Below the pieces are notes generated by a model. The model worked only from the letters and a program-made list of their open reading frames with translations. It ran no database searches and was not told where the DNA came from. The translations under genes were made by a program, and so were the position numbers. A stretch of 64,000 bases of DNA from Myxococcota bacterium (GTDB taxonomy: Bacteria > Myxococcota_A > UBA9160 > JAFDDA01), in assembly GCA_965228475.1 (NCBI GenBank), contig OZ245817.1, forward strand, positions 32,001 to 96,000, given 5' to 3'. Below, piece after piece: positions 3,275-33,029 of this stretch. Each line of letters opens with the position of its first letter. The first letter of the stretch is position 1.

Positions 3275-3283
3275 AGTGTATCA
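3275..3283 (-). promoter_or_regulatory. Extended -10 promoter (TGnTACACT) for gpsA, probably leaderless
   Basis: Minus strand reads TGA-TACACT, 7 nt, then the GTG start; no SD sequence. Confidence 0.5.
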
Positions 3284-3438
3284 GCCTGGCACGAAGCATC
3301 GGGCCGCTCGTGCCCCCGGGGGCCGCGAATCGGGTGCGGTCGCCCGGCCCGTGGAGGGAGTCAATTCGACGACTGTACGCCCGCGTTGCTCCCGGGGTAG
3401 TCTCAGCAGGCTCGTGCTGAGCTTGGAGCAAGGATGGA

Positions 3439-3636
3439 ATGTTCAGGAGGGTCGTGCAGAACGTCGGCATCATGATCGCGACGGCTGCACTCGTGGCCGG
3501 ATGGGGGCTCCTGGATCGGGAGTCAGGCCTCGAGAGCTGGTTCGAGCTACGCGAGCAAGTGAGAACCGCGACCGAGAATCTCGATCGCTACAAGCTCGAG
3601 GCAAGAAGTCTTGACCGAGAGTCGAGAGGGCCCTGA
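3439..3636 (+). CDS. FtsB/septum-formation-initiator-like small membrane protein (short, possibly truncated or frameshifted)
   Basis: N-terminal TM helix, then LLDRESGLESWFELREQV... heptad coiled coil, as in FtsB/DivIC. The -1 frame continues PRVERALTLAR, resembling the FtsB C-terminal motif. Confidence 0.6.
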   Translation: MFRRVVQNVGIMIATAALVAGWGLLDRESGLESWFELREQVRTATENLDRYKLEARSLDRESRGP

Positions 3637-3638
3637 CC

Positions 3639-5000
3639 CTGGCGCGCAGTTCCCCTTCAGATGCCGCTCGAGTCTTCATCTCTTCCACGTCCGAGGATCT
3701 TCGCGAGGACCGCGCCAGTACGATCCGGATGCTCCGGCAGCTCGGGTGCAATCCTATTGCGATGGAGGATTTTGCGCCGGGTGGTTCGCCCCCACTACAG
3801 CGTTGTGTCCAGGAAGTCCGCGCGTGTGATGCCTACGTCGGGATATTCGCCTGGCGTTACGGCTACGTGCCAGAGGGGCACGAGAAGAGTATCACCGAGC
3901 TCGAGTACGAGGCCGCTCTCGCGGCAGGGCTGGAAGTGTTTATCTTCCTCATCGACGAAGATTCTCATAGCCCAGACGATGAGATCGGCACGCGCTTCGA
4001 GGCTGTTAGAGACCTCCGTGCCAAGCTGATGAAGAATCACGTTGTCGCTTTCTTTCGGGGTGCCAACGACTTGGCGCCCAAGGTAGTTACGTCGGTTGCG
4101 AAGTGGTTGGCCGGGTCCCGGCGCGAAGATCGCTCGCCGAGTGTTCCTGGCCTGCTCCCCTACCTGAGCGACAGAGATCGGCAAGTCCTCGAGGTCTTTA
4201 GGCTCTTGGAGCAGCGCTCAGCGGGTCAACGCCGCCCCACCTTCATCCTGATGCATGGTGGTTTGGAGCAAGCACACGACACGTTCGTGGATCGACTCAT
4301 TCATCAGGAGCTACCACGGCTTCTCAGGCTGGACCCCACGACCGAGCGAGTGACGCACTTGCCATTGCGATGGCGCGGGGGCGGCACGAGAACAGATCGG
4401 CTCGATTCGCTGGAGCTGCAGCTTGCGCAGGCGCTGGCGAGTCCTTCGCTGGAAGTCCAAGCGCCGAGCACCCTCGGATCGGAGTGGCGGGAGATCGCTT
4501 CCGCCGGGTCCGGGGTACTACTGATCACTTCGATGATCGGTAGCCACGAGTGGCACCACGACGAGGAGGATCTCATCGACTCTTGGATGGGACTCTGGCG
4601 AGGCTTCCCCGATTTGGCACCGGCGAGGTACATCGTTGTGATTGTTGGGGTCCAGTACCGTTCCTCCCCCGAATCTGGGTGGTTGTTTCGAAGAAGGAGC
4701 CGTCGTCAACACGCTGAGATTCGTCGCAGCCTTCGGGCCCTGACTGCCCGAGGGATGGATCGACTTGTCGTCGGCCTGCTGCCGGAACTCTCCAGCGTGA
4801 CCGAAGGGGATGTCGAGGAGTGGATGAAGGATCGGGTCCCAGAATTCTGTGAAGCAACTGGGCGTGACCCCGTGTTGATTCGGGAGCATCTGCTTCCCAA
4901 GGTGAGGGATCTGTTTCGTGATACCCGGGCTCCGATCCCGATGGCGACATTGGGCCCGCAGCTTCGTATGTTGCTCGCGGAAGAGGGCAAGAAGATATGA
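3639..5000 (+). CDS. DUF4062 (TIR/NDT-like) domain fused to an iSTAND (inactive STAND) domain
   Basis: The frame is open from 3615. RVFISSTSEDLREDR lies upstream of the ATG at 3729, followed by MEDF, DAYVGIFAWRYGYVP and SITELEY (DUF4062). The C-terminal half starts LLPYLSDRDRQ...ILMHG...HDTFVDRL, typical of iSTAND. Start uncertain (CTG at 3639 assumed). Confidence 0.78.
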   Translation: MARSSPSDAARVFISSTSEDLREDRASTIRMLRQLGCNPIAMEDFAPGGSPPLQRCVQEVRACDAYVGIFAWRYGYVPEGHEKSITELEYEAALAAGLEVFIFLIDEDSHSPDDEIGTRFEAVRDLRAKLMKNHVVAFFRGANDLAPKVVTSVAKWLAGSRREDRSPSVPGLLPYLSDRDRQVLEVFRLLEQRSAGQRRPTFILMHGGLEQAHDTFVDRLIHQELPRLLRLDPTTERVTHLPLRWRGGGTRTDRLDSLELQLAQALASPSLEVQAPSTLGSEWREIASAGSGVLLITSMIGSHEWHHDEEDLIDSWMGLWRGFPDLAPARYIVVIVGVQYRSSPESGWLFRRRSRRQHAEIRRSLRALTARGMDRLVVGLLPELSSVTEGDVEEWMKDRVPEFCEATGRDPVLIREHLLPKVRDLFRDTRAPIPMATLGPQLRMLLAEEGKKI

Positions 5001-5965
5001 ACAGACGGATCTTCACGACCGCTGACTCGCCGGATGGTTCTTGGGGCTCGTCGATCGATCGTCGACCTCTGGTAGCGCCTGAGGGATACCAAGCTGACGA
5101 TCGACTAAGGGATGCGGTCAGCGTATCCCTTCATCTCGGCCAGCCGCTTCTATTGACCGGAGAACCGGGAACCGGGAAGACGCAGCTGGCCTTCTCACTC
5201 GCTTGGGAGCTTGGCCTTGGGACTCCGCTGGGGTTTGATACGAAATCAACCAGCACGTCACGAGATCTATTCTACTCCTACGATTCTTTGGGTCGCTTTC
5301 ACGCTGCTCAGGCCGGGGGTGGAACCGCGAATCCGATCGACTATCTCCACTTCAACGCCCTCGGTCTCGCTGTCCTTCGCGCGACGCCACCCGAGAGCTA
5401 CTCCGATCTCAAGGATGCCCTGGGCGAGACTGCGCATCGGAAGCGGTCGGTGGTTTTGATCGACGAGATCGATAAGGCGCCCCGTGATTTCTCGAATGAT
5501 CTCCTCGCCGAACTCGAGGAGATGTATTTTAGGATTCCCGAACTGGCGAATCTCGTGGTCGCGGCAGACCCGGAGTATCGCCCCATCGTTGTCGTCACTA
5601 GCAACTCCGAGCGAAATCTTCCGGACGCGTTCCTGCGTCGCTGCGCCTACCACCACATCGAGTTCCCGGATCGAGATCGCATGCAGAGAATCGTCGCAGC
5701 TCGCCTCGGTGAACGAGTCGCTAAGGACCGGGAGTCGCTGGATCTAGCTCTTGATTTCTTTGAGGCCCTACGTGACCCAGCAACGACGCTCGCAAAGAAG
5801 CCCTCGACCGGCGAGTTCCTAGTTTGGTTGCGAATTCTGTCGGACCGAGGCGTTGGGCGAAACCCGCGGGAATGGGGGGCGACCCTGAGCGCCCTCGTGA
5901 AGACATCCGATGATTCGAGGCGGGCTCTGGGCCTTCTAGCCCGTTTCCGCACCCTGTCCGAGTAG
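4997..5965 (+). CDS. MoxR-family AAA+ ATPase (ternary conflict-system type)
   Basis: Walker A GEPGTGKT, Walker B VVLIDEIDKA, TSNSERNLPDAFLRRC, DLFYSYDSLGRF; ATGA overlap with the upstream gene. Confidence 0.93.
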   Translation: MNRRIFTTADSPDGSWGSSIDRRPLVAPEGYQADDRLRDAVSVSLHLGQPLLLTGEPGTGKTQLAFSLAWELGLGTPLGFDTKSTSTSRDLFYSYDSLGRFHAAQAGGGTANPIDYLHFNALGLAVLRATPPESYSDLKDALGETAHRKRSVVLIDEIDKAPRDFSNDLLAELEEMYFRIPELANLVVAADPEYRPIVVVTSNSERNLPDAFLRRCAYHHIEFPDRDRMQRIVAARLGERVAKDRESLDLALDFFEALRDPATTLAKKPSTGEFLVWLRILSDRGVGRNPREWGATLSALVKTSDDSRRALGLLARFRTLSE

Positions 5966-5970
5966 ATTCC

Positions 5971-8900
5971 TTGCTCCCGTCCGAAGAGTCACTCTTCGAC
6001 CTGCTCGACGAGCTGCGCTCCGCGGGACTTGGGATCGGGACAGAACACTACATTCAGGCGCAAGAGCTGCGTGTCTCCTTCGAGCAAGGCGCGCGATCGC
6101 AGAGCGACTTGTTGTCGTGGCTTGCACCTTTGTTGTGCTCGAGCCCTTCCGATCTGGAGACATTCTCAGAGGTTGCGGAATCCTGGAGCTCTCGAAGCGT
6201 CAATCGTGGCCGTCGCGAGTTTCCGTGGAGCCTCGGCCTCGGAAAGCTCCGTCGAGGGTTCTACGGCTGGCTAGGTCGCTGCCTCGGGAGATCGATTGGG
6301 CGTTGGTCGGGTGGCGCCCGCCTACTTACCGAGCTCAGGAAGCCAGACCGTCTTGGGGCCGTCACCGTAGGGTTGGTCGTTGGGGGCCTGGGCGTTCTCT
6401 TCGTCAGGAACGAGATCCTCGATCTCCGCTACGAGCTAGGCGAGATCTCCCAACAGGTCCTGGCGTTGGACGCCGAGGTTCGAAGTGTTCGAGGGCTGAC
6501 GGGCGGGGACGTCGTGCTTGATTCACCAGACCCGAGTTCCGTTTCCGTGACCGGCGTGATTGTCGACGAGGATGGACAGCCACTAGAAGGCGCGCAGGTC
6601 GAGATCCTAGGCGCACTCGGGGAGACTCGGTCTCTCGAACTCCATCTCGGCCCGCCCTTGGGGGTCGGTTTTCAGGGAAGCAACATCGTTGCGGTGGGCT
6701 CCGAAGAGGGGCGCCCGAAGGTGGTTCGCTGGAACCCAGAGCGTGCAGAGCCAGAGACTTGGTACCTGGAAGCTGATGCACCGAGGCATGCGGAGCTCTT
6801 TCCCGACGCCAGCTCGGTCATTCTGTCGTCTGAGCAGGGAGAGATTTCTCTCTTCGACATCGGGTCCAGCCAAAGCCGTTGGCGAAAGGTGATCCGGGGA
6901 CAAGTGCTTCGAGTGGCATCGTCTCCCCTCTCGACCGGCAGAGCATTCCTTGTTGTGTCCTGGAATCGAGGAATTCTCAGTGCCGAATGGTTCACGATCA
7001 ACGGCAACGGAGAGTCAGCGTCCCTCGTACGGACCATCGAGTCGGATCTCCCAAAGCTGATCGAGACCGAAGTATCCGAGGTCGACTTCCGAGTTCTCGC
7101 TTTGGTCGAGAGTTCCTCAGAGGTCATTGCCTTGGGAATGAGCCGGGCGGGTTCAGAACGGTGGTCACTGCCGGTGGTGGGGGCAGTGGACCTGGGAATG
7201 TCGGGTCAACGCTGGGTGGTCGCTCGAGAGGACTCGATCGAGCTCTACTCGCGAGGGTCGTTGGTCTTGGAGCTCGACGAGGTTGCCGGCGTCAGTGACG
7301 TCGACCTGCGCGAGGACGCTCTGGTCATCGAGACGTCCGAAAGGAGCCTAGCAGTCGTTGATCCGGAGTCTGGAACTCTGAACGTGGATTCTCGAGGGCC
7401 CCCGGACGGCCCGGTCGCGTGGCTCATAACCCAAACGACGATGCATGGTGAAGACCCAGTCTTGCGACGATGGGTTCACGGTCGTCCGACAGAAGCGACG
7501 CTTTCGATCAACAGTCAGAGCGGCGGCCCGAGCCCCGGGAGAGACGGTCACGGCGCGCAGTATCAAGTCGCCCCTGTGACCGCGCTGACTTCCGCGGTCC
7601 GACCCGATGGGCTCGGGGTTGCGACTCTCGGCCTTGGCGGGGTCCTTAGATTTCATGGAGTGCCCCTCGTGAGGACGACGAATCCTCTCGGGCGTTTCCG
7701 TGCCAAGTATCGTTCTCTTGGCGCCTTGACGTTGGTGCGAGCCGAGGCTGCGCCGTACGAATCGCGGACACTTCTGCTACCCGTCGAATCGTCGAGGGCA
7801 GACGTTCAGATTTCCCTCGACGTCGCACAGGTCTCCTCCGGGAAGCCGCTGGTAGAGTCGGTCTTCCTCGGTGTAGCTGTTGCGGTTGCAACGACGCTGG
7901 GCGTCTTCCTGTTGGCTCTGGGACGCCCGCGGGCCGTTGCTGAGCGGGCAGACTCTACGGCGCAGGACGATGCTCCTTCGCTCGCCCTGGCTCAGGGCGG
8001 AGAAAGGGAGCTGATCGATCCGCATGTGATCGACCGAATCAGCCAAGTAGGGGGCGTAGGCGGATCGTCGTTGCAGGCTCGCCTGGACGTTGAAGCGACG
8101 GTCAGGGCAACGGCTGAAGCAGCGGGCCACTTCAAGCCCATCCACGAGGAGATCAGTAGCGATGAGAGGTACCTCGCGCTCATAGATGCGCGCGGGGCGG
8201 GAGACCATCAAGCGCTACTGGTCCTCCATCTGCTCGAGACGCTCGCGAGCCGAGGCTTCCAGGCCACGTGTTTCACATTCCACTCCGATCCGAGGGTCTG
8301 TCGATCGGTTGATTCAGAATCGGATCTTTGGTCGTTGAGTCGCCTTGCCGCGAAGTACTCTGAGCATTCGCTGCTGATCTTTTGCAATCCGGAACAGTGC
8401 TGCGATCTCACGGCTGGAGGCTTGCAGCCCTGGGTTAAGGGGCTGGAGAGTTTCCGCTCCCGCGCAATCCTCGATCCACAGCCGGGAATGCTCTCTGGGG
8501 AGCTGGTGGACTCCCTCACCTCCGCGAACATCTCGGTCGTTCCCTCAACGCCGGAGGGCGTCGAGAGGTTGCTAGCAGGGGCTCGGCATCCGGAACGGGA
8601 GCCTCGCGAACCTCACTCCCCCATCCTTCTGGAACGGCCCCTTCGATGGCTCGACGAAGCCCCTCCACCCGAAGCCGATCAGGACCGTCTCTGTGTGGAG
8701 CTCATTGCGAGCCTTGGCTTCGATGACTTCAATCTGCTTGCAGCATGCGCCGTTTACCCGATCCTCGACTGGCCCCTCACGATCCTGCTTCTGAGGGCAC
8801 TCGACGCCTCGAAGCCCCTGGAGGCGCGTTTTGGGCAGCTACTCAGGTTCTCCCGGCTCCCTTGGTTTCGTGTGGGTTGGATGCCGGACTGGTTGCGCAG

Positions 8901-10812
8901 TCGGCTCCTCCGGGAGCTCCCCGTAGAAACGGAGCGGTCGATCCGTTCGGCCCTGCGGCTTCACATTGGAGCTGCAGGCGACGACGCCCTGAGAGCGACG
9001 GTTCGGCCACGAGGATTGCGTTGGCGGGCAGCAGGGTCTGGGGTGAGCCGGGAGATCGGAGAGGACCGGGTCTTTGTCGGTTTCATGATGGGGAGCCGCG
9101 GTCGTGGCCTCGACGTCGAGCTGAGGAGCGCTCCAGTGTTGCGCTTGATGCTAGGAGCGGGCGTCCAGAGGCTATTCGGGATCTGGCGGGTCCTCCGCGG
9201 GAGAGCGGTGCGGCTGATCGACGTCAGGGTAGGTCGCCTGCGCGACAAGGCGCTGGCTCCGGGCATCTCGTTGATGAGCAGCGCAACGGATCGACGAACG
9301 TTGTCCCGGGTGTATGCCCTGGGCCTGCTAGGCGTTGCGATAGCCGCCGTTCTGGGGGGGCGAGCGATCTATCTGGCTCAGCCTCGCCAAGGTCGCGACA
9401 ACGTTCGGGCCTCGACGATAGTTGTACCGCCGGTAAGGGGAGAGATTCTGGATCGCGATGGTCGTCGTCTCGCGGTTTCCGTAGAGGCGCCCTCTGTCTA
9501 CATAGACAGCGGCTTCGAAGAATCATCGATTCTATCGCTTTCTCGGGCGCTCGAGCTGGACGAGGGCTTCGTGCGCGGTCGGTTCGAGTCGATGAAGAAC
9601 TTCAGTTTCATCCAGCGGTGGGCGTCCGAGGAGGCGGCTGAGCGGGTGCAGAGTCTCGGTATCCCTGGTGTTGGGGTTCTGCGGGAGCCGAGGAGAATGT
9701 ACCCGGAAGGGACTCTGGCTGGTTCACTGGTCGGTTTCGCGAACATCGATGGCGATGGAGTTCGTGGTATCGAACAGGCAGAGGACAATTGGCTCAGGGG
9801 CAGAGAAAGACGAGTCCTGTTTGAACGCGACGCTCGAGGCAAAGTCATGGCCGACGAGATGCTCGACCCCCGCCAGTGGGCCGGCGGAGACGTGCAGCTG
9901 ACACTTGACCTCGCGACACAACGCCGCGTGGTCGGCGAGTTGTCCAAGCTTCTCACCTCTACTCGATCCGGCGGGGCGGTCGGTGTGGTCTTGGGCAGTC
10001 GGAGCGAGGTTACGGCACTCGCGCAGGCTCCCTCGTTCGATCCGAACCGCTTCCGATCGACCTCCTTTGCGGATACTCGGGCGAAGCCGTTCCTCGACTC
10101 TCACCAACCGGGGATGTCGCTTCTCCCGGTATTCCTGGCGATTGGACTGGAGAAGGGCGTGCTAGGCATCGATGCCTTGGAATCGTTCGACCCGGAGGAT
10201 CCGAGAACCCGCAGCACTGCGAGAGTATTGGCGAGAAGGCTCGGTCCGCGCGGGACTTCCGAAGGCCTTCGTGAGGCCGGGTTCGGGCGGGTGTCAGGAA
10301 GCGGCTTCCCTGGTGAGTCCGCGGGAATTCTGCGGCCCTGGGAACAGTGGCGTCCGATCGACCTCGACGCGATCTCGGCTGGATTCGGGATCAACGTGAC
10401 TCCGATCCAGCTCGCATCCGCGCTCTCGGCCCTTGTGGGCGGCGGAGTCCAGAGGTCGCCCGAACTCGTGCTCACACGCCGAAGGCCTGGAGGGCAATGG
10501 CAGGCCCTTCCTCAATCAGATTCTCGACGCGTCGTCTCTGAGGGTACGTCTCAAGCGATCACCCGCTGGTTCGAGTCGCGCTCCATTGAGCTGATCGGAG
10601 GACGATATTCGAGCTTCGAGGTCCGGGCCGAAGCGTTGAGTTCCAGTACGGGCGAGTTCGACGATCAGATCTTCTGGAGCCTCGGCGTGGTATTTGGGCC
10701 GAGTCCTACCGTGATCGTTCTCCAAGTAACGGACCCAGGTACCGGCGTAGAAGACGCTCTCGGAGCGGCCTTCCGGGGAGTCGCCTCTAGGATCCTCGAG
10801 TCTTCTCCATGA
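5971..10812 (+). CDS. Multidomain vWA-type partner of MoxR, fused to an FtsL-like segment, a beta-rich extracellular region and a C-terminal FtsI/PBP3-like module with a degenerate transpeptidase
   Basis: N-terminal LRSAGLGIG...LAPLLC helical cap; LDVEATVRATA...YLALID...DHQ vWA-like core; ACAVYP and RLPWFRVGWMPDWLR motifs; PBP motifs RGEILDRDG, RMYPEG, GIE, GGDVQLTLD and GINVTPIQLA. Confidence 0.85.
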   Translation: MLPSEESLFDLLDELRSAGLGIGTEHYIQAQELRVSFEQGARSQSDLLSWLAPLLCSSPSDLETFSEVAESWSSRSVNRGRREFPWSLGLGKLRRGFYGWLGRCLGRSIGRWSGGARLLTELRKPDRLGAVTVGLVVGGLGVLFVRNEILDLRYELGEISQQVLALDAEVRSVRGLTGGDVVLDSPDPSSVSVTGVIVDEDGQPLEGAQVEILGALGETRSLELHLGPPLGVGFQGSNIVAVGSEEGRPKVVRWNPERAEPETWYLEADAPRHAELFPDASSVILSSEQGEISLFDIGSSQSRWRKVIRGQVLRVASSPLSTGRAFLVVSWNRGILSAEWFTINGNGESASLVRTIESDLPKLIETEVSEVDFRVLALVESSSEVIALGMSRAGSERWSLPVVGAVDLGMSGQRWVVAREDSIELYSRGSLVLELDEVAGVSDVDLREDALVIETSERSLAVVDPESGTLNVDSRGPPDGPVAWLITQTTMHGEDPVLRRWVHGRPTEATLSINSQSGGPSPGRDGHGAQYQVAPVTALTSAVRPDGLGVATLGLGGVLRFHGVPLVRTTNPLGRFRAKYRSLGALTLVRAEAAPYESRTLLLPVESSRADVQISLDVAQVSSGKPLVESVFLGVAVAVATTLGVFLLALGRPRAVAERADSTAQDDAPSLALAQGGERELIDPHVIDRISQVGGVGGSSLQARLDVEATVRATAEAAGHFKPIHEEISSDERYLALIDARGAGDHQALLVLHLLETLASRGFQATCFTFHSDPRVCRSVDSESDLWSLSRLAAKYSEHSLLIFCNPEQCCDLTAGGLQPWVKGLESFRSRAILDPQPGMLSGELVDSLTSANISVVPSTPEGVERLLAGARHPEREPREPHSPILLERPLRWLDEAPPPEADQDRLCVELIASLGFDDFNLLAACAVYPILDWPLTILLLRALDASKPLEARFGQLLRFSRLPWFRVGWMPDWLRSRLLRELPVETERSIRSALRLHIGAAGDDALRATVRPRGLRWRAAGSGVSREIGEDRVFVGFMMGSRGRGLDVELRSAPVLRLMLGAGVQRLFGIWRVLRGRAVRLIDVRVGRLRDKALAPGISLMSSATDRRTLSRVYALGLLGVAIAAVLGGRAIYLAQPRQGRDNVRASTIVVPPVRGEILDRDGRRLAVSVEAPSVYIDSGFEESSILSLSRALELDEGFVRGRFESMKNFSFIQRWASEEAAERVQSLGIPGVGVLREPRRMYPEGTLAGSLVGFANIDGDGVRGIEQAEDNWLRGRERRVLFERDARGKVMADEMLDPRQWAGGDVQLTLDLATQRRVVGELSKLLTSTRSGGAVGVVLGSRSEVTALAQAPSFDPNRFRSTSFADTRAKPFLDSHQPGMSLLPVFLAIGLEKGVLGIDALESFDPEDPRTRSTARVLARRLGPRGTSEGLREAGFGRVSGSGFPGESAGILRPWEQWRPIDLDAISAGFGINVTPIQLASALSALVGGGVQRSPELVLTRRRPGGQWQALPQSDSRRVVSEGTSQAITRWFESRSIELIGGRYSSFEVRAEALSSSTGEFDDQIFWSLGVVFGPSPTVIVLQVTDPGTGVEDALGAAFRGVASRILESSP

Positions 10813-11885
10813 GGAACTCCGCACCCATCGCTCCGTGCCTATTGCTGTCTGGTCTCGGCATCTTGATGGCATATAGCCTCGGCGCTCCACACGGCGTTGA
10901 AAGAGAGCGGTTGCTCGCGCAGCTAGCGGGAGTCGTGGCGGGTGCCATCGCGGGTTTCTTGGTGTACAGGGTGCCGATACGTCTCCTGCACGACGCCAGC
11001 CCGCTCCTGCTCGTAGTGAGCATCTCTCTTACCATCGCAGGGCTGTTGTTTGGCCGTGAGGTGAACGGTGCCAACCTCTATCTCCATCTGTACGTGTCAG
11101 ACCTCGGATTCGGAATCCGGCACGGGTACCTCAGTGTCCTCCTTGCAATGGTATGGATTGCTAGGAGCGTTCGTGACGCTCGCACAGGCCCCGGGATTCC
11201 GTGGCCCCTCTTGCTCGTCCTCTTCCCGGGAGGAGCAATGCTCGCTGCTGGGGACCGAGTGTCGTTTGTACTCCTCACTACGATCGTGGTTCTCGCCCTG
11301 TTCGTGACCGGAGTTCGGATTCGTTGGCTCGTAGGGGCAATGACGATCTCGCTCTCGGTGATGGCTCTCTGGTTGGCGAACAACCCCTATCTTTGGACCC
11401 GCTTTGCTGGGTTTCTTGCACCGTGGGATCGTCGAGAGTACGAGGCCTACTCCCTGGTGCAATCGTTCGTTGCATTCGAGCGTGGAGGCCTCTTGGGGGT
11501 TGGCTTGGGAGACAGTCGCCAGAAACTGTTCTATCTCCCCGAAGCCCACTCTGATTTCGTGCTGGCTGTCTTGGCCGAGGAGCTAGGTGCGGTGGCCGTC
11601 TTGGTGGTGATCCTCTGTTTCGTGTGGATCGGGAGGTATGGATGGCAGGCAGCGATCCGATCGCACACGCTTTTTTCGAGGGCTCTTGCCACAATCACCA
11701 CCGCTTTCCTCGTGGTCCCTGTCACGTTGCACGCCGCGTCCGTTATGGGATTGATCCCGACGTCGACTTTTCCTTTGCCACTGGTCTCCTACGGCCGCAA
11801 CCATCTGCTTGTCTTTGGCGCCGCCATGGGAGTCCTTTGCCGCATCGACAGAGAATCGGCCCGAATGGACGGAATGGACGAGTAG
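10809..11885 (+). CDS. FtsW/RodA SEDS-family protein (divergent FtsW-like)
   Basis: Polytopic membrane protein with YSLVQSFVAF, GGLLGVGLGDSRQKLFYLPEAHSDF...EELG and LPLVSYG; ATGA overlap with the upstream gene. Confidence 0.9.
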   Translation: MRNSAPIAPCLLLSGLGILMAYSLGAPHGVERERLLAQLAGVVAGAIAGFLVYRVPIRLLHDASPLLLVVSISLTIAGLLFGREVNGANLYLHLYVSDLGFGIRHGYLSVLLAMVWIARSVRDARTGPGIPWPLLLVLFPGGAMLAAGDRVSFVLLTTIVVLALFVTGVRIRWLVGAMTISLSVMALWLANNPYLWTRFAGFLAPWDRREYEAYSLVQSFVAFERGGLLGVGLGDSRQKLFYLPEAHSDFVLAVLAEELGAVAVLVVILCFVWIGRYGWQAAIRSHTLFSRALATITTAFLVVPVTLHAASVMGLIPTSTFPLPLVSYGRNHLLVFGAAMGVLCRIDRESARMDGMDE

Positions 11886-11955
11886 GGTCCTATGTGCCCT
11901 GCGCAATAAGCCGTCTTCGTGTCGCAGCGGCTTGCCTACTGGGCGGCTCGATGCG

Positions 11956-11984
11956 TTGACGGGCATTTTGCTCGCGGCTAGCTT
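11956..11984 (+). promoter_or_regulatory. Sigma70-type promoter for the nuo operon
   Basis: TTGACG-N17-TAGCTT, about 110 bp upstream of nuoA. Confidence 0.55.
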
Positions 11985-12091
11985 CCCCGAGATCCCTAGA
12001 TCTATCGCGGAGTTCCGCCACAGTCCGCACACCAGTCCGCACGCGTCTTGGCGCGCCTTCGCCGCCCGCCAGAAGCTGGAGGGGCTCCTCG

Positions 12092-12445
12092 ATGCTGGCC
12101 GAGTTCACCGGCGTGCTGCTGATGCTTGGGGTCGCCCTGGCCGTGGCCGGCGGCATGCTGCTCGTGCAGCAGCTCCTCTCGCCCCGCCGCGAATTCCCCG
12201 AGAAGCAGGAACCCTTCGAGTGCGGCGAGAGCCCCGTCGTCTCCCCCCGCCAGCGCTTCAGCGTGAAGTTCTATCTCGTCGCGATGCTCTTCCTCGTGTT
12301 CGATCTCGAGGCGGTGTTCTTCTACCCCTGGGCCGCGCTCTTCACGGACCTCGGCTGGTACGGCTACGGGATCATGACGGTCTTCGCCGTGCCGCTGGTC
12401 GTGGGCCTCGCCTACGAGTGGATGAAGGGCGCGCTCGAGTGGTGA
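12092..12445 (+). CDS. nuoA: NADH-quinone oxidoreductase subunit A
   Basis: K.EPFECG, FYLVAMLFLVFDLE, YEWMKGALEW. Confidence 0.96.
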   Translation: MLAEFTGVLLMLGVALAVAGGMLLVQQLLSPRREFPEKQEPFECGESPVVSPRQRFSVKFYLVAMLFLVFDLEAVFFYPWAALFTDLGWYGYGIMTVFAVPLVVGLAYEWMKGALEW

Positions 12446-12906
12446 TCTCCGAGGCCACCCGCTCGGCCATCGACGCACAGGTCGCGCGCTACCCGAGGCC
12501 GCGCGGCGCGCTGCTGCCGGCCCTGCACCTCGTCCAGAAGGAGCACGGCCACGTCTCGCCCGACGCGGCGCGCGAGCTCGCGGAGATCTTCGCGCTCGAG
12601 CCCATCGAAGTGTTCGAGGTGATCTCCTTCTACAACATGTTCCGCAGCCGGCCCGAGGGCCGCCACCACGTCTACGTCTGCACGAATCTGCCCTGCTCCC
12701 TGCGCGGCGCGCGGGGCCTGCTCGGCCAGCTCGAGGCACACCTCGGCATCCGGGCCGGGGAGACCACGGAGGACGGACGCATCACCCTCGGCCACGAGGA
12801 ATGCCTCGGCGCCTGCGGCTACGCCTCGATGCTGCGCGTCGACGAGACCTATCACGAAGACCTCGACCCGGCCCGCGCCAAGGAGATCCTCGACGCCCTC
12901 GAATAG
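12442..12906 (+). CDS. nuoE: NADH-quinone oxidoreductase subunit E
   Basis: GTG start overlapping the nuoA stop; ALLPALH, SFYNMF, CTNLPC and ECLGAC 2Fe-2S ligands. Confidence 0.95.
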   Translation: MISEATRSAIDAQVARYPRPRGALLPALHLVQKEHGHVSPDAARELAEIFALEPIEVFEVISFYNMFRSRPEGRHHVYVCTNLPCSLRGARGLLGQLEAHLGIRAGETTEDGRITLGHEECLGACGYASMLRVDETYHEDLDPARAKEILDALE

Positions 12907-12921
12907 GGCGCCCACGCTCGC

Positions 12922-14220
<1,299 letters not shown>

Positions 14221-14228
14221 GCGGGGCG

Positions 14229-15698
14229 ATGGCGAAGATCACCGTCGACGGCACCGTGTACGAGGTGAAGGCAGGCCGGACGATCCTCCAGGCGCTCGAC
14301 GAACTCGGCGTGCTCGGCCGGGACGTCGAGGTTCCCCACTACTGCTGGCACCCGAAGCTCTCGATCGACGGCTCGTGCCGGCTGTGCCAGGTCGAGGTCG
14401 AGGGTTTTCCGAAGCTCCAGATCGCGTGCAACACCCCGGTGAAGGACGGGATGGAGATCCGCACCCGGACGGAGGCGGTGCAGAGTGCGCGCGAGGGCGT
14501 GATGGAGCTCCTGCTCGTGAACCATCCGCTCGACTGCCCGATCTGCGACCAGGCCGGTGAGTGCAAGCTCCAGGACTACGCCTTCGAGTACGGCGTCGAA
14601 CACGCGCGGACGCGCGAGCCGCGCCGGGCCGCCAAGAAGAACGTGAGCCTCGGCCCGACCATCGTCTTCGACCAGGAGCGCTGCATCCTGTGCCGGCGCT
14701 GCGTCCGCTTCTGCCGGGAAGTACCCGGCACCGGGGAGCTCGGCGTCGTCGGCCGCGGCGATCACTCCCTGATCGAGACCTTTCCCGGCATGGAGCTCGA
14801 CAACCCGTACTCGATGAACGTCGCCGACATCTGTCCCGTCGGCGCGCTCACGACGAAGGACTTCCGCTTCAAGATCCGCGTCTGGTTCCTCGAGGACGTG
14901 CCCGGCGTCTGCACCGGTTGCGCCAAGGGCTGCAACGTCTGGATGGGGACGTCGAAGGGAGAGGTCCATCGCTACACGCCCCGCCGCAACGACGAGGTGA
15001 ACGAGACCTGGCTCTGCGACGCCGGGCGCATGACGTACAAGGAGATCGGCTCGCCCGCGCGGCTCGGGCATGCGCTCGTGCGCGGCGAGCTCGGCGTTCC
15101 GGAGACGGCGCCGACGAAGACCGCGCTCGCCGCGGCCGCCGAGCGCCTGACCGCCCTCGCTGCGGCCAAGGGCCCCGGGGTGATCGGCGCGGTCGCCTCC
15201 GGCCACGGGACCAACGAGGACCTCGCGGCCTTCGCGCGCTGGCTCGATGCCGCGGGGATCGAGAACCGCGGGCTGGCCACCGCCGCGGGCGAGAGCGACG
15301 ACCTGCTCGTCCAGGCCGAGAAGGCGGCCAACGGAGAGGGCGCGCGCCAGGCGGGCTTCGGCCCGGTCGCGCCGCTGCTCGACCGCCTGCGCGGCGGCGG
15401 GCTCGAGGCGCTCGTCGTCTGGGGCCACGATCTGCTCGCGCCCGAGCATCTCGGAGGCATCGAGCCGCTCGCGGGTCTCGAGACGCTCGTCGTCTTCGAC
15501 ACGCATCACTCGGCCCTCGAACGGCTGGCCCACGTCGTCGTCCCGACGCGCCACCTCGCCGAGAAATCCGGCCACGTCACCAACCACGAGGGCATCGTCC
15601 AGGCGGTCTCGCGCGCCGTGCCGGCGCCGGGCGATGCCATCGACGACGCCGAAGCCTTCGACGCGCTCGCCGCCGCGATGCGGAGCGAAGCGCCGTGA
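14229..15698 (+). CDS. nuoG: NADH-quinone oxidoreductase subunit G (short form, 489 aa)
   Basis: ATG at 14229; CWHP..CRLC, HPLDCPICD, CILCRRCVRFC, CPVGAL, CTGCAKGC. Confidence 0.93.
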   Translation: MAKITVDGTVYEVKAGRTILQALDELGVLGRDVEVPHYCWHPKLSIDGSCRLCQVEVEGFPKLQIACNTPVKDGMEIRTRTEAVQSAREGVMELLLVNHPLDCPICDQAGECKLQDYAFEYGVEHARTREPRRAAKKNVSLGPTIVFDQERCILCRRCVRFCREVPGTGELGVVGRGDHSLIETFPGMELDNPYSMNVADICPVGALTTKDFRFKIRVWFLEDVPGVCTGCAKGCNVWMGTSKGEVHRYTPRRNDEVNETWLCDAGRMTYKEIGSPARLGHALVRGELGVPETAPTKTALAAAAERLTALAAAKGPGVIGAVASGHGTNEDLAAFARWLDAAGIENRGLATAAGESDDLLVQAEKAANGEGARQAGFGPVAPLLDRLRGGGLEALVVWGHDLLAPEHLGGIEPLAGLETLVVFDTHHSALERLAHVVVPTRHLAEKSGHVTNHEGIVQAVSRAVPAPGDAIDDAEAFDALAAAMRSEAP

Positions 15699-16855
15699 CC
15701 TTCGAGGTCGTCGCGAAGGCGCTCTTCATCCTGCTCGTCGTGATGGCGGGTTTCCTCCCGATCATCACGTGGATCGAGCGCAAGCAGTCGGCCGTGATGC
15801 AGGACCGCATCGGGGCGAACCGCGCCGACATCGCCGGCATCACCGTGCTCGGCCTGCTCCATCCGCTGACCGACGTGCTGAAGCTCTTCGCCAAGGAGGA
15901 CTTCGTCCCCGAAGGCGCGAACCGGTTCATGCACCTGCTCGCGCCGGTGATCTCGCTCGTACCCGCGATCATGATGCTCGCGGTCGTCCCCTTCGGCGGC
16001 GTCTACGACTTCGGCGGCGAGCGTCCGCTCTCCCTCGTCGTGGCGGACATCGATTGGGGCATGCTCTTCGTCTTCGCCGTCGGCTCAATCGCGGCCTATG
16101 GCTCGGTCATCTCCGGCTGGGCGAGCAACAACAACTGGGCGTTGCTCGGGAGCCTGCGCGCCTCGGCCCAGATCATCTCCTACGAAGTCACGATGGGGCT
16201 CTCCATCGCGGGCATCTTCATGTGCTTCCAGACGCTCTCGCTCCAGGAGATGGCCCTCGCCCAGGACCAGAGCTTCCGCGTGTTCGGGTTCCTCGAACAC
16301 CTGGGCCTCGTCGCCACGCTGCCCGCGGCCCTCGCCTGGGTGAAGCTCCCTCTCTGGGGGATCTTCCTGCAGCCGCTCGGCTTCGTGCTCTTCCTCACCT
16401 GCATCATGGCCGAGAACAAGCGCCCGCCCTTCGGCCTGCCCGAAGGCGAGACCGAGATCGTCGCCGGCTACCACCTCGAGTACTCGGGCATGCGCTGGGG
16501 CCTCTTCTACACTGCCGAGTTTCTCGAAGTTCCGGTGATCGGCTGCATCGTCACCGCCGCCTTCCTCGGCGGCTGGACGATCCCGTTCCTCGACACCCAG
16601 ACGCTCGTCGGCGCGGTCGCGCCCTTCTTCGGCGAAGGCTTCGCGAACGGCGTCGCCATGGTGGCGCAAGTGACGGCCTTCTTCGCCAAGGTCGTCTTCA
16701 TGATCTGGCTCCAGATGCTGATCCGCTGGAGCCTTCCGCAGTTCCGCTACGACCAGGTCATGGACCTGTGCTGGAAGATCATGCTCCCGCTCTCGCTCGC
16801 GAACATCTTCGTGACGGGGCTCGTGATCCTCTGGCTGAAGGACCTCGGCGTATGA
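15695..16855 (+). CDS. nuoH: NADH-quinone oxidoreductase subunit H
   Basis: GTG at 15695; ERK..A.MQDRIG, DVLKLFAKE, AQIISYE, RYDQ.M..CWK. Confidence 0.96.
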   Translation: MTFEVVAKALFILLVVMAGFLPIITWIERKQSAVMQDRIGANRADIAGITVLGLLHPLTDVLKLFAKEDFVPEGANRFMHLLAPVISLVPAIMMLAVVPFGGVYDFGGERPLSLVVADIDWGMLFVFAVGSIAAYGSVISGWASNNNWALLGSLRASAQIISYEVTMGLSIAGIFMCFQTLSLQEMALAQDQSFRVFGFLEHLGLVATLPAALAWVKLPLWGIFLQPLGFVLFLTCIMAENKRPPFGLPEGETEIVAGYHLEYSGMRWGLFYTAEFLEVPVIGCIVTAAFLGGWTIPFLDTQTLVGAVAPFFGEGFANGVAMVAQVTAFFAKVVFMIWLQMLIRWSLPQFRYDQVMDLCWKIMLPLSLANIFVTGLVILWLKDLGV

Positions 16856-31802: not shown

Positions 31803-33029
31803 ATGGCCATCGACTTCAGCTTCACCCCGGAAATCGAGCAGGTCCGCCACCAGGTCCAGCGCTTCTGCGCCGAGGTGGTGCGGCCGGCCGAGGCCGCCAT
31901 CGCCGAGAAGGAAGGCGACCGCGAGACGCTGGTGGAGCAGGTGATCAAGATGCGAAAGGCCGCGCTCGAGTGGGGGCTCTGGCTGCCGCACATGCCCGAG
32001 GAGTGGGGCGGCATGGGGCTCGGCCACGTGGCCATGGCCGCCGTCTCCGCGGAAGCGGCGAAGACGCGTTTCGGCCCGTTTGCGCTGAACGCCCAGGCGC
32101 CCGACGAGGGCAACATGCACACGCTCCTGCACTGGGCGACGGACGACCAGAAGGAGCGTTACCTGAAGCCGCTCTGCCAGGGCAAGGCGCGCTCATGCTT
32201 CGCGATGACGGAGCCCGAGGTCGCGGGCTCGGACCCGACGCTCATCCAGACCAAGGCCACCGAGCGCGACGACCACTGGGAGATCCACGGCCACAAGTGG
32301 TTCATCTCGGGCGCCAAGGGCGCACAGTTCGCGATCCTGATCGCGCGCACCGAGGACGATCCGGATCTTCCCCAGGCCGCGAACTCCGCCTTCCTCGTCG
32401 ACCTGCCGTCCGAAGGGTGGGAGATCGTGCGCGACGTGCACACGATGAGCGGCAGCCACAACCACTGCGAGATCAAGATCGACGGCCTGAAGGTGCCGAA
32501 GGAGAACATGCTCGGCGGCCGCGGCCAGGGGCACCTGCTCGGCCAGGCGCGGCTCGGGCCGGCGCGCCTCGCCCACTGCATGCGTTGGGTCGGTCAGGCG
32601 GAGGTCGCCCTCGAGATGATGGTCGACCGCGCCCAGAAGCGGTACGCGCACGGCTCCTACCTCGCGGAGAAGCAGGGCATCCAGTGGATGATCGCCGACA
32701 GCTCCATGGAGCTCTACCAGTGCAAGCTGATGATCCTCCACGCCGCCTACAAGATCGATCGCAAGGAGGACTTCAAGAGCGAGGTCTCCATGGCGAAGCA
32801 CTTCGTGGCGAACTCGCTGAACCGCATCATCGACCGTGCGATCCAGGTGCACGGGGCGCTCGGCTACAGCACGGACACGCCGCTCGCGGACATGCTGAAG
32901 CAGGCGCGCTGGGCCCGCTTCGCCGACGGCGCCGACGAGGTGCACCAGTGGCGCATCGCCATGCGCACGATCGAGGCCTACACCAAGACCGGAAGCGTGA
33001 ACGCCGCGACCGGCGGACTCCCTCTCTAG
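31803..33029 (+). CDS. Acyl-CoA dehydrogenase family protein
   Basis: APDEGNM, FAMTEP, GHKWFISG, AIQVHG, DGADEVH; GAGGAG SD and upstream TAGAAT. Confidence 0.95.
   Translation: MAIDFSFTPEIEQVRHQVQRFCAEVVRPAEAAIAEKEGDRETLVEQVIKMRKAALEWGLWLPHMPEEWGGMGLGHVAMAAVSAEAAKTRFGPFALNAQAPDEGNMHTLLHWATDDQKERYLKPLCQGKARSCFAMTEPEVAGSDPTLIQTKATERDDHWEIHGHKWFISGAKGAQFAILIARTEDDPDLPQAANSAFLVDLPSEGWEIVRDVHTMSGSHNHCEIKIDGLKVPKENMLGGRGQGHLLGQARLGPARLAHCMRWVGQAEVALEMMVDRAQKRYAHGSYLAEKQGIQWMIADSSMELYQCKLMILHAAYKIDRKEDFKSEVSMAKHFVANSLNRIIDRAIQVHGALGYSTDTPLADMLKQARWARFADGADEVHQWRIAMRTIEAYTKTGSVNAATGGLPL

Follow-up and report, generated by a model that had tools for sequence, protein, structure and literature searches.

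A putative conflict island in a Myxococcota genome carries FtsB-, FtsL-, FtsI- and FtsW-like divisome parts

We conclude with high confidence that a five-gene operon in the genome of a Myxococcota bacterium was acquired horizontally as a unit, and that it belongs to the MoxR-vWA ternary conflict systems, iSTAND type, with inactive divisome paralogs built in. The operon lies at positions 3439 to 11885 of the window, by which we mean the whole 64,000-nucleotide stretch that was analyzed (positions 32,001 to 96,000 of contig OZ245817.1, assembly GCA_965228475.1, forward strand); coordinates below refer to the window unless the host genome or another locus is named. In order, the genes encode a small FtsB-like peptide, a DUF4062-iSTAND protein (gene 2), a MoxR-clade AAA+ ATPase (gene 3), a vWA-type membrane protein with FtsL-like and FtsI-like parts (gene 4), and an FtsW-like SEDS protein. 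We refer to the four divisome-like parts as FtsB', FtsL', FtsI' and FtsW'. Based on the anatomy of the locus and on published work on the family, our preferred explanation, to which we assign a probability of roughly 0.4, is that these parts constitute a noncatalytic divisome replica that would serve as a decoy or sensor, with its output through the DUF4062 NADase.

RESULTS

Insertion of the operon into the host genome

The five open reading frames (ORFs) all lie on the plus strand, at 3439-3636, 3729-5000, 4997-5965, 5971-10812 and 10809-11885. ATGA start/stop overlaps occur at 4997 and 10809 and a 5-nt spacer at 5966-5970, and these coordinates bear out the co-oriented, tightly packed arrangement claimed in a prediction made earlier from the DNA alone (here, the original prediction). 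The host genome is a single contig of 5.0 Mb with a GC content of 70.5%. Across the island, the GC content is even at about 60% (59-65%), compared to 69-74% in the flanks on both sides. The left neighbor is gpsA, on the minus strand, and to the right are nuoA and more nuo genes. In all four relatives examined (one from the same genus, one from the same family, and two from the same order), gpsA and nuoA are separated by only about 200 bp and nothing occupies the site, which marks the five genes as an inserted segment of about 8.7 kb. Its approximate limits, taken from GC content and the spacers of the relatives, are 3275..11940, between gpsA and the promoter region of nuoA, and at the right junction the alignment to the intergenic region of a relative resumes from about 11940. 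No tRNA, integrase, or flanking direct repeat that would account for the insertion was found at the island edges, and a scan for promoters and terminators returned nothing exceeding chance. The system is present in one copy in the host genome. Recent duplication of host genes was considered as a source and rejected, given the GC content of about 60% versus 70% and identities of merely about 40% to the host proteins.

The stretch from 3300 to 12000 was compared with independently assembled contigs from three public runs of two studies, and there were 0 differences. Two contigs span the whole of it, and pieces from the third run bridge the junction between the vWA-like and penicillin-binding protein (PBP) parts (7879-9633) as well as the start of gene 2 (3300-3725). 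The assembly itself may have been made from one of these three runs. The listed runs that contain the sequence include no RNA data set. A chimeric assembly at the vWA-PBP junction was rejected, as contigs from all three runs bridge it without a difference.

The divisome genes of the host

The host genome contains three SEDS genes and six transpeptidase-domain genes, the island pair included. Its division cluster includes a class B PBP gene (ftsI) at 3.110 Mb, with a 119-amino-acid FtsL-like ORF just upstream, and a SEDS gene (ftsW) at 3.117 Mb. A SEDS gene adjoining a class B PBP gene at 4.30 Mb is of the rodA-pbp2 type, and ftsB is found at 1.66 Mb. Given intact ftsL-ftsI, ftsW, ftsB and rodA-pbp2 elsewhere in the genome, the island genes are extra copies, and the possibility that the island holds the sole ftsI and ftsW genes was rejected. 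The original prediction was thus correct in placing the locus away from the division and cell wall genes. It had also named beforehand three matters on which it could fail, and the findings were that iSTAND matches exist, that other ftsI and ftsW genes exist, and that the vWA-PBP junction is bridged by three runs. As a separate observation, the open frame of the host ftsW (genome positions 3115648-3118035) extends for about 430 codons ahead of the SEDS domain, through Arg/Pro-rich, low-complexity sequence, and this extension is probably an artifact of open frames at high GC content.

FtsI' and FtsW'

FtsI' (9301..10809, plus strand) comprises the third transmembrane segment (TM3) of gene 4, then the pedestal, which is PBP_dimer at residues 1152-1293, and after it a transpeptidase-like domain, as delimited by Pfam. 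Residues 1152-1535 match PBP_dimer (40.5 bits) and Transpeptidase (59.3 bits), each over its Pfam cut-off; the NCBIfam model for the FtsI subfamily gives 120 bits, far under its cut-off of 737. Residues 1100-1613 are 39.6% identical to the host FtsI, versus 27% to the host PBP2. At the position of the SxxK motif the protein reads MSLL, with S1382 replaced by M and K1385 by L, and the SSN and KTGT blocks are both deleted. The three other class B PBPs of the host retain SxxK and KTG. From these motifs, the transpeptidase of FtsI' is predicted to be catalytically dead. When five FtsI sequences (the host FtsI and four of nine fetched relatives) are compared, FtsI' retains 96 of the 161 columns that are invariant among them: 50/67 in residues 1100-1345, which cover the tail, transmembrane segment and pedestal, versus 46/94 in residues 1346-1613, the transpeptidase part.

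FtsW' is a SEDS protein of 358 codons (10809..11885, plus strand) that matches Pfam FTSW_RODA_SPOVE with 177.9 bits against a cut-off of 26.4, and TIGR02614 (ftsW) with 213.9 bits, under the cut-off of 337.5. It is 47% identical to the host FtsW, over residues 165-343 (the second half) only, and a search of 5.8 billion clustered proteins gave ordinary FtsW proteins as the best matches (42-44% identity). SEDS polymerase activity requires the Glu of the QPSE motif and an Asp of the PEAHSDF type. FtsW' retains D249 within PEAHSDF and the block around it. With 120 relatives as the reference, there are 110 columns of at least 90% conservation, of which FtsW' retains 77 and has lost 33. The losses include Q104 and E107 (QPSE motif), P148, G151, Q215, N308 and G320, each at least 91% conserved in the same relatives; for Q104, E107, Q215, N308 and G320, the figure is 99-100%. 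The FtsI- and FtsW-like assignments of the original prediction are upheld by the Pfam matches, with the qualification that all three transpeptidase motifs and several near-invariant SEDS residues have been lost.

FtsB' and FtsL'

The two small parts were assigned with custom hidden Markov models (HMMs), built from 29 FtsB relatives and 9 FtsL relatives with the host protein excluded in each case, and run against the full set of 44,966 six-frame ORFs from the host genome. FtsB' (3439..3636, plus strand) is a 65-amino-acid peptide with a transmembrane helix and a coiled coil. The FtsB model returns the host FtsB first (1.2e-30), then FtsB' (1.3e-7), and the next match is at 0.082. The host FtsB aligns to model positions 1-88 of 92, and FtsB' to positions 5-57; it consists of the transmembrane helix and coiled coil only and is without the C-terminal third. 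Searched as a single sequence, FtsB' has the host FtsB as its best nonself match in the genome (E 0.006).

FtsL' (6343..6492, plus strand; residues about 125-174 of gene 4) consists of the first transmembrane segment (TM1) and a juxtamembrane coiled coil. The FtsL model returns the host FtsL (9.4e-19), then the 1613-amino-acid ORF (4.5e-4), and nothing further up to an E value of 10. The alignment covers model positions 21-70 of 111 and ends just short of the LRDPxRL motif that is present in 10/10 aligned FtsL sequences. At that position gene 4 reads VRSVRGLTGGD, followed by a CarboxypepD_reg-like domain. In five relatives of the vWA-type protein that have CarboxypepD_reg, the domain directly follows TM1, with no coiled coil, and the FtsL' coiled coil can thus be recognized as an insert of about 45 amino acids that is specific to the island protein. 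Pfam DivIC gives no match on FtsB' up to an E value of 10, and Pfam FtsL gives none on gene 4; NCBIfam likewise returned neither DivIC nor FtsL for these segments. The FtsB- and FtsL-like parts named in the original prediction are thus recovered with host-order HMMs, in forms that lack the C-terminal segments and fall outside the two Pfam models.

The loss of catalytic motifs invites the explanation that these are decaying cargo, that is, divisome-like genes captured by chance beside, or fused to, a conflict system and drifting without function. The status of the locus as a singleton and the lack of a canonical start codon for gene 2 (see below) point the same way. However, the 1613- and 358-codon frames are both intact, with an overlapping stop and start, and the loss is selective, with the transpeptidase part more affected than the pedestal. 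The island brings together four subunits of a single complex, two of them trimmed at matching points, and the sequence is identical in contigs of three runs from two studies. We consider decay without function quite improbable.

Gene 4 as a three-pass membrane scaffold

Gene 4 (5971-10812, plus strand) encodes 1613 amino acids, among which three stretches are strongly hydrophobic (residues about 127-145, 631-649 and 1111-1135). The predicted order is a cytoplasmic N-terminal domain, TM1, a periplasmic beta-rich region, TM2, a cytoplasmic vWA-like core, TM3, and a periplasmic end module. The N-terminal domain (residues 1-100; 5971..6270, plus strand) is common to 144 of the 150 best relatives, and the available text of Kaur et al. 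(PMC7159879) describes a four-helix CoxE-like N-terminal domain in vWA proteins of iSTAND systems. In the beta-rich region (residues about 190-630; 6538..7860, plus strand), matches are weak: CarboxypepD_reg (4.5e-4) and PQQ_2 (7.6e-4), neither of which reaches the Pfam cut-off, and ESM Atlas leads of at most 0.82. A single-sequence fold prediction of this region has a predicted local distance difference test score (pLDDT) of 33, too low to use. The probable arrangement is a CarboxypepD_reg-like domain and, after it, a propeller. TM2 spans 7861-7917 on the plus strand.

Between TM2 and TM3 lies the core (residues 703-1008; 8077..8994, plus strand), which consists of a putative vWA-like alpha/beta domain of divergent sequence and a helical domain after it. 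The Pfam vWA models give no match on gene 4, even at an E value of 10, and neither do those of NCBIfam. A core model from 41 sequences has a mean pLDDT of 79, with values of >90 across the core, and in Foldseek searches with it the vWA domains of NorD bound to the MoxR-type NorQ rank first (E 1.2e-3, probability 1.0). The Asp of the metal-ion-dependent adhesion site (MIDAS) on strand 1 is retained as D739 (Asp in 34/41 aligned sequences). Family membership and this weak fold match support the view that the modeled core is a divergent vWA-like domain. The vWA label of the original prediction is kept in that sense, and not as a Pfam vWA match.

Gene 2 and gene 3

Gene 2 encodes a DUF4062 (TIR-like NADase)-iSTAND protein (3633..5000, plus strand), with both domains above the Pfam cut-off. 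We take the iSTAND domain (PF19995; 35.7-35.9 bits, cut-off 24) to be an inactive STAND NTPase scaffold, and no GK[ST] P-loop was found in the protein when it was read by eye. The gene begins upstream of ATG 3729, which the original prediction missed: translated from ATG 3729, the protein matches only DUF4062 profile positions 22-82 (56 bits, 3.5e-15), whereas from CTG 3633 it matches positions 1-82 of 82 (87 bits, 1e-24). Ahead of ATG 3729, the same frame codes for RVFISSTSEDL, the conserved start of the domain, and no ATG, GTG, or TTG precedes this motif in frame. The three closest homologs begin 2 to 10 residues ahead of the VFISS motif. The start is probably CTG 3633, which overlaps the FtsB' stop codon (CTGA), or else CTG 3639; ATG 3729 would truncate the N terminus of the domain. 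The full-length DUF4062 match depends on translation from one of these two CTG codons. Because independent contigs have an identical sequence at the gene 2 start, there is no assembly indel in this region. A GAGAGG stretch was also noted at 3624-3629, near CTG 3633, and an ATG in a different frame at 3661. According to the available parts of two preprints, DUF4062 domains have an NADase activity that depends on a catalytic Glu, and they function in abortive antiphage defense (10.64898/2026.09.04.749371; 10.64898/2026.05.01.722283). The original prediction did not take up this role. E91 is invariant in an alignment of the island protein with its three closest homologs (4/4 sequences).

Gene 3 (4997..5965, plus strand) matches Pfam AAA and AAA_5 (AAA_5 at 41.2 bits against a cut-off of 22), and midasin is its best sequence match in the PDB. 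Walker A (GEPGTGKT) and Walker B (LIDEID) are both intact, and we take this ATPase to be active; like the gene 2 protein, it belongs to the cytoplasmic side of the system. Its assignment to the MoxR clade of AAA+ ATPases rests on AAA_5, the midasin match and synteny. The iSTAND and DUF4062 domains of gene 2 and the MoxR-type AAA domain of gene 3, as named in the original prediction, are thus matched by Pfam above cut-off. PADLOC returned weak AAA matches on the ATPase alone and none on the other four proteins. Gene 3 weakly matches PADLOC mad8, IetA and TRIP13, and it scores 72.9 bits with the NCBIfam model "MadB family AAA-type ATPase," below the cut-off of 475.

Relatives and conserved synteny

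The iSTAND ternary class is known, and to our knowledge there has been no experimental work on it. An exhaustive HMMER search with gene 4 residues 1-1110 returned 2687 core homologs, 461 of them at an E value of 1e-30 or better. The matches fall on core residues of about 704-997, and among the best 150 of the 2687 matches, 144 also match the first 100 residues. In a set of 80 genome and 80 metagenome loci fetched with the core profile (a few of which may be duplicate records), a MoxR homolog is directly upstream of the core gene in 70/80 and 62/80 loci, respectively (132/160), and an iSTAND homolog is ahead of the MoxR gene in 51/80 and 43/80 (94/160), many of the misses being loci truncated by contig ends. 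As judged from its sequence, the locus is an iSTAND ternary system as defined by Kaur et al. (2020).

The relatives listed are 553 to 2270 amino acids long and carry very different modules. The slot between TM1 and TM2 holds PASTA, WD40, PEGA or CarboxypepD_reg modules, and the slot after the core holds LemA, Yip1, MFS, TPR, SLT, trypsin, IcmF-like, TIR, caspase, FGE-sulfatase or lysozyme modules. Several close relatives (L061, at 7528-11586 of its locus, and P0029, P0040 and P0148) end in periplasmic domains of the IcmF/TssM type (IcmF_C, IcmF-related). IcmF/TssM proteins are parts of the membrane complex of type VI secretion, and these modules may be another captured piece of a membrane machine. 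In one related locus (L062), a DDE_3 transposase gene (10273-11385) lies directly 3' of the vWA-type gene. In a metagenome locus (L179), a class A PBP gene (Transgly plus Transpeptidase; 5602-7935, minus strand) is convergent to the vWA-type gene; it was considered as a captured divisome part and not counted, being an ordinary neighbor on the opposite strand.

The occurrence of PASTA, PEGA and CarboxypepD_reg modules in both periplasmic slots of relatives is relevant to a further explanation, in which FtsW'/FtsI' would bind lipid II or nascent glycan and would either report the state of the wall or place the system at it, as an envelope-status sensor or an anchor. Such a role has been attributed to PASTA, PEGA and OmpA modules in other members, and the available text of Kaur et al. 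(PMC7159879) notes peptidoglycan-associating modules after the transmembrane segment in iSTAND systems. The substrate-side SEDS elements around D249 are retained, as would be expected. However, binding to the wall leaves the addition of FtsB- and FtsL-like parts unexplained, and the SEDS residues Q104 and E107 are lost. We consider this role unlikely.

The combination seen in the island was not found elsewhere. Among the best 150 of the 2687 relatives, none has a PBP part or FtsL-like segment, and a PBP-bearing relative is possible further down. No SEDS, FtsI-like, FtsB'-like or FtsL'-like match occurs in the 160 related loci (0/160), and the first 1075 residues of gene 4 have no match at an E value of 1e-10 or better in 40 related genomes. 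Two word-based searches, which may miss relatives, were made in a length band of 887-2823 amino acids: full gene 4 returned itself and one FGE-sulfatase protein only, and the PBP part returned itself and one FtsI-Mur ligase fusion only. Pattern-based scans of genome and metagenome contigs with gene 4, which may also miss relatives, recovered no close relative, and a literature search on MoxR/vWA together with FtsW or penicillin binding found nothing relevant. The expectation that no described system has this combination has therefore held up. As far as these searches reach, what appears to be a four-part dead divisome copy in a MoxR-vWA system is new, and it is found in a single genome.

SEDS-class B PBP pairs dedicated to special processes exist, which counts for yet another explanation, namely that the island encodes an alternative, chaperone-assisted wall synthase for a developmental process, in the manner of SpoVD/SpoVE, and is not a conflict system. 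It fits with this that MoxR-vWA pairs are assembly chaperones in other settings, as stated in the available text of Kaur et al. (PMC7159879). Against it stand a transpeptidase that is predicted to be unable to work, a DUF4062-iSTAND protein, which is a hallmark of the conflict family, and the absence of the island from the 40 related genomes searched. We regard a developmental wall synthase as highly improbable.

Genes to the right of the island

Past its right edge, the nuo genes (12092-16855) have the apparent order nuoA, NuoE-type 2Fe-2S, NuoG-type and NuoH-type. Genes nuoB, nuoC and nuoD were not seen between nuoA and nuoE among the ORFs scanned, a set that excluded the ORF at 12922-14220. 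The island sits just upstream of the stretch that aligns to the gpsA-nuoA spacer of the relatives.

DISCUSSION

Our preferred explanation, a decoy or sensor replica that feeds an NADase, would work as follows. We predict that FtsB', FtsL', FtsI' and FtsW' assemble in the inner membrane as a self-contained, noncatalytic replica of FtsW-FtsI-FtsL-FtsB. In the real complex, FtsB and FtsL bind FtsQ through their C-terminal segments, and since these are missing from FtsB' and FtsL', the replica is expected not to depend on FtsQ. It would act as bait, and proteins of phages or competitors that attack the septal synthase or the supply of lipid II would bind or perturb it. The resulting change in periplasmic packing would be passed across the membrane to the cytoplasmic vWA-like core, which is possible because FtsL' (TM1) and FtsI' (TM3) flank the core in one polypeptide. 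The MoxR ATPase would read or remodel the core and set a threshold, and the iSTAND scaffold would then activate the DUF4062 NADase, leading to NAD+ depletion and growth arrest or abortive infection. The location of the core between the FtsL' and FtsI' helices suggests a possible route by which a cytoplasmic ATPase could communicate with a periplasmic complex, whether the replica is a decoy or, as discussed below, an effector.

Several features argue for the decoy or sensor replica. The parts appear to be noncatalytic and yet shaped for interaction, as more has been retained in the pedestal than in the transpeptidase part and FtsB' and FtsL' are reduced to transmembrane helix plus coiled coil. 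The operon seems to encode an enzymatic effector of its own, the DUF4062 domain. A self-contained replica would suit a mobile island whose parts are about 40% identical to the host proteins. Phages, moreover, do target this machine. DivIC is the homolog of FtsB. According to the available text on phage PhiNM1, its protein Gp11 binds DivIC and MurG and disrupts the recruitment of FtsW (PMC11237401). Finally, active originals are encoded in the same genome, and this is the situation for which Kaur et al. (PMC7159879), in the text available, proposed decoys.

Other points weigh against this explanation. The assembly of the four parts is a prediction from anatomy, and with about 40% identity the replica would be a poor mimic of the host proteins, whereas a decoy is expected to track its model. 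FtsW' retains the catalytic Asp and the motif surrounding it, so that some activity is possible. The strand-4 MIDAS Asp of the core is replaced by N806, in a column with Asp in 33/41 sequences, Glu in 5 and Asn in 2, and in one of two fold searches the vWA match is no better than those to generic Rossmann-like folds. E91 of the DUF4062 domain is a candidate counterpart of the published catalytic Glu (E108, E98 or E103). The locus is a singleton, and there is thus no signal from covariation or repeated capture. Last, what follows the core in relatives can be a genuine enzyme (TIR, caspase, trypsin, lysozyme or SLT).

Because the slot that FtsI' occupies is often an effector slot in relatives, the last point favors an alternative in which the divisome-like parts are themselves the effector, a dominant-negative or "poisoned" synthase. 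When the MoxR-vWA module fires, the Fts-like complex would hit the septal synthesis of the cell, and division arrest or lysis would follow as an abortive response. It could do so by titrating native partners or lipid II, or by forming dead-end FtsB'/FtsL or FtsL'/FtsB pairs that are unable to reach FtsQ; if FtsW' still polymerizes, it could also produce uncross-linked glycan, as a beta-lactam-blocked synthase does. The truncation of FtsB' and FtsL' to their pairing regions, without the C-terminal segments, is consistent with such action, as is the retention of D249 in PEAHSDF in a complex in which FtsI' is predicted to be unable to cross-link. The post-core module of relatives is often an effector enzyme, including the wall-degrading lysozyme and SLT. 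In the available text of Kaur et al. (PMC7159879), inactive MinD/ParA, FtsK and, rarely, FtsZ make up 7.5% of effector domains, and dominant-negative action is proposed. However, the loss from FtsW' of Q104, E107, Q215, N308 and G320, which are conserved in 99-100% of relatives, argues against efficient polymerization, and identities of about 40%, together with the location on a mobile island, leave host-specific pairing uncertain. The operon also already has a plausible killing enzyme in the DUF4062 NADase. We consider dominant-negative action possible and somewhat doubtful. The original prediction had put forward both a division inhibitor and a decoy or guard, and either may hold.

The decoy or sensor replica that we prefer also has a more specific form, in which the complete four-part replica is an integrated multisubunit decoy with a vWA-like relay, a MoxR gate and a TIR-like NADase output. 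Integrated decoys in plant NLR receptors are its nearest analog. We offer this form only tentatively; if it is true, it would be the first case in bacteria, as far as our searches show, in which a whole essential machine has been copied as bait.

The locus resembles the iSTAND systems of Kaur et al. (eLife 2020, PMC7159879), as their available text describes them, in several ways. The three core genes are the same and in the same order, and the iSTAND protein has an N-terminal nucleotide-acting domain. The vWA-type protein likewise has the N-terminal domain, transmembrane segments, modules that face the cell wall and a variable end module, which in both cases can be an inactive copy of a cellular enzyme. 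In contrast, the island has captured four subunits, two of them fused into the vWA protein and two encoded by extra genes, and the main text of Kaur et al. (PMC7159879) makes no mention of penicillin-binding proteins or FtsW. The original prediction proposed that four subunits of one complex had been captured. The four divisome parts agree with this, and the idea of inactive cell-division copies acting as decoys or dominant negatives is already present in Kaur et al. (2020).

The closest precedents for the use of division proteins are the effectors of the VMAP ternary systems (MinD/ParA-like, FtsK and, rarely, FtsZ; PMC7159879), which are also predicted-inactive cell-division proteins in a MoxR-vWA system. 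As described in the available text, these are cytoplasmic single domains, whereas the island carries membrane and periplasmic proteins of the late divisome, as a set of four and in an iSTAND system. On the side of the output, the DUF4062/NIR NADases (Avs2, Vulcan, Vesta and Swarozyc; 10.64898/2026.09.04.749371, 10.64898/2026.05.01.722283) share the N-terminal DUF4062 domain, the conserved Glu and a STAND-like scaffold. The available parts of these preprints do not mention iSTAND or MoxR, and in the island a membrane protein of its own would be the sensor, with the coupling made by MoxR.

Compared to the FtsWIQLB core complex of Pseudomonas aeruginosa (PDB 8bh1), the island has paralogs of all of FtsW, FtsI, FtsL and FtsB, and FtsW' aligns to the FtsW chain over residues 7-351. 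It differs in that it has no FtsQ-like gene, no C-terminal segments in FtsB' and FtsL', no catalytic motifs in FtsI', and lacks some near-invariant residues in FtsW'. Furthermore, FtsL' and FtsI' are in one polypeptide, joined via the cytoplasmic vWA-like domain. The island may thus be viewed as a natural FtsQ-less design with a fused FtsL and FtsI, and it could inform how the real complex is switched.

What we describe is one locus in one genome, and it is known from DNA sequence only. Within that scope, it is an unusually legible case for the role of inactive "effector" modules in the widespread MoxR-vWA ternary systems, as it consists of four subunits of a well-understood complex, trimmed to interaction elements, with the active originals in the same genome. 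The choice between a decoy and a dominant negative can be tested on this island with standard division and NAD+ assays. SosA is reportedly an SOS-induced small membrane inhibitor of late division and is unrelated to divisome copies. Phage PhiNM1 Gp11, according to the available text (PMC11237401), acts at the same level as the island would, that of DivIC/FtsB, FtsL and FtsW/FtsI, but is an unrelated small protein and not a divisome copy. Gp11 and SosA mark the FtsB/FtsL/FtsW/FtsI complex both as a phage target and as a point at which cells arrest division. Whether the island encodes a decoy or a dominant negative, it would indicate that the FtsWI-FtsLB core is a contested target in microbial conflicts.

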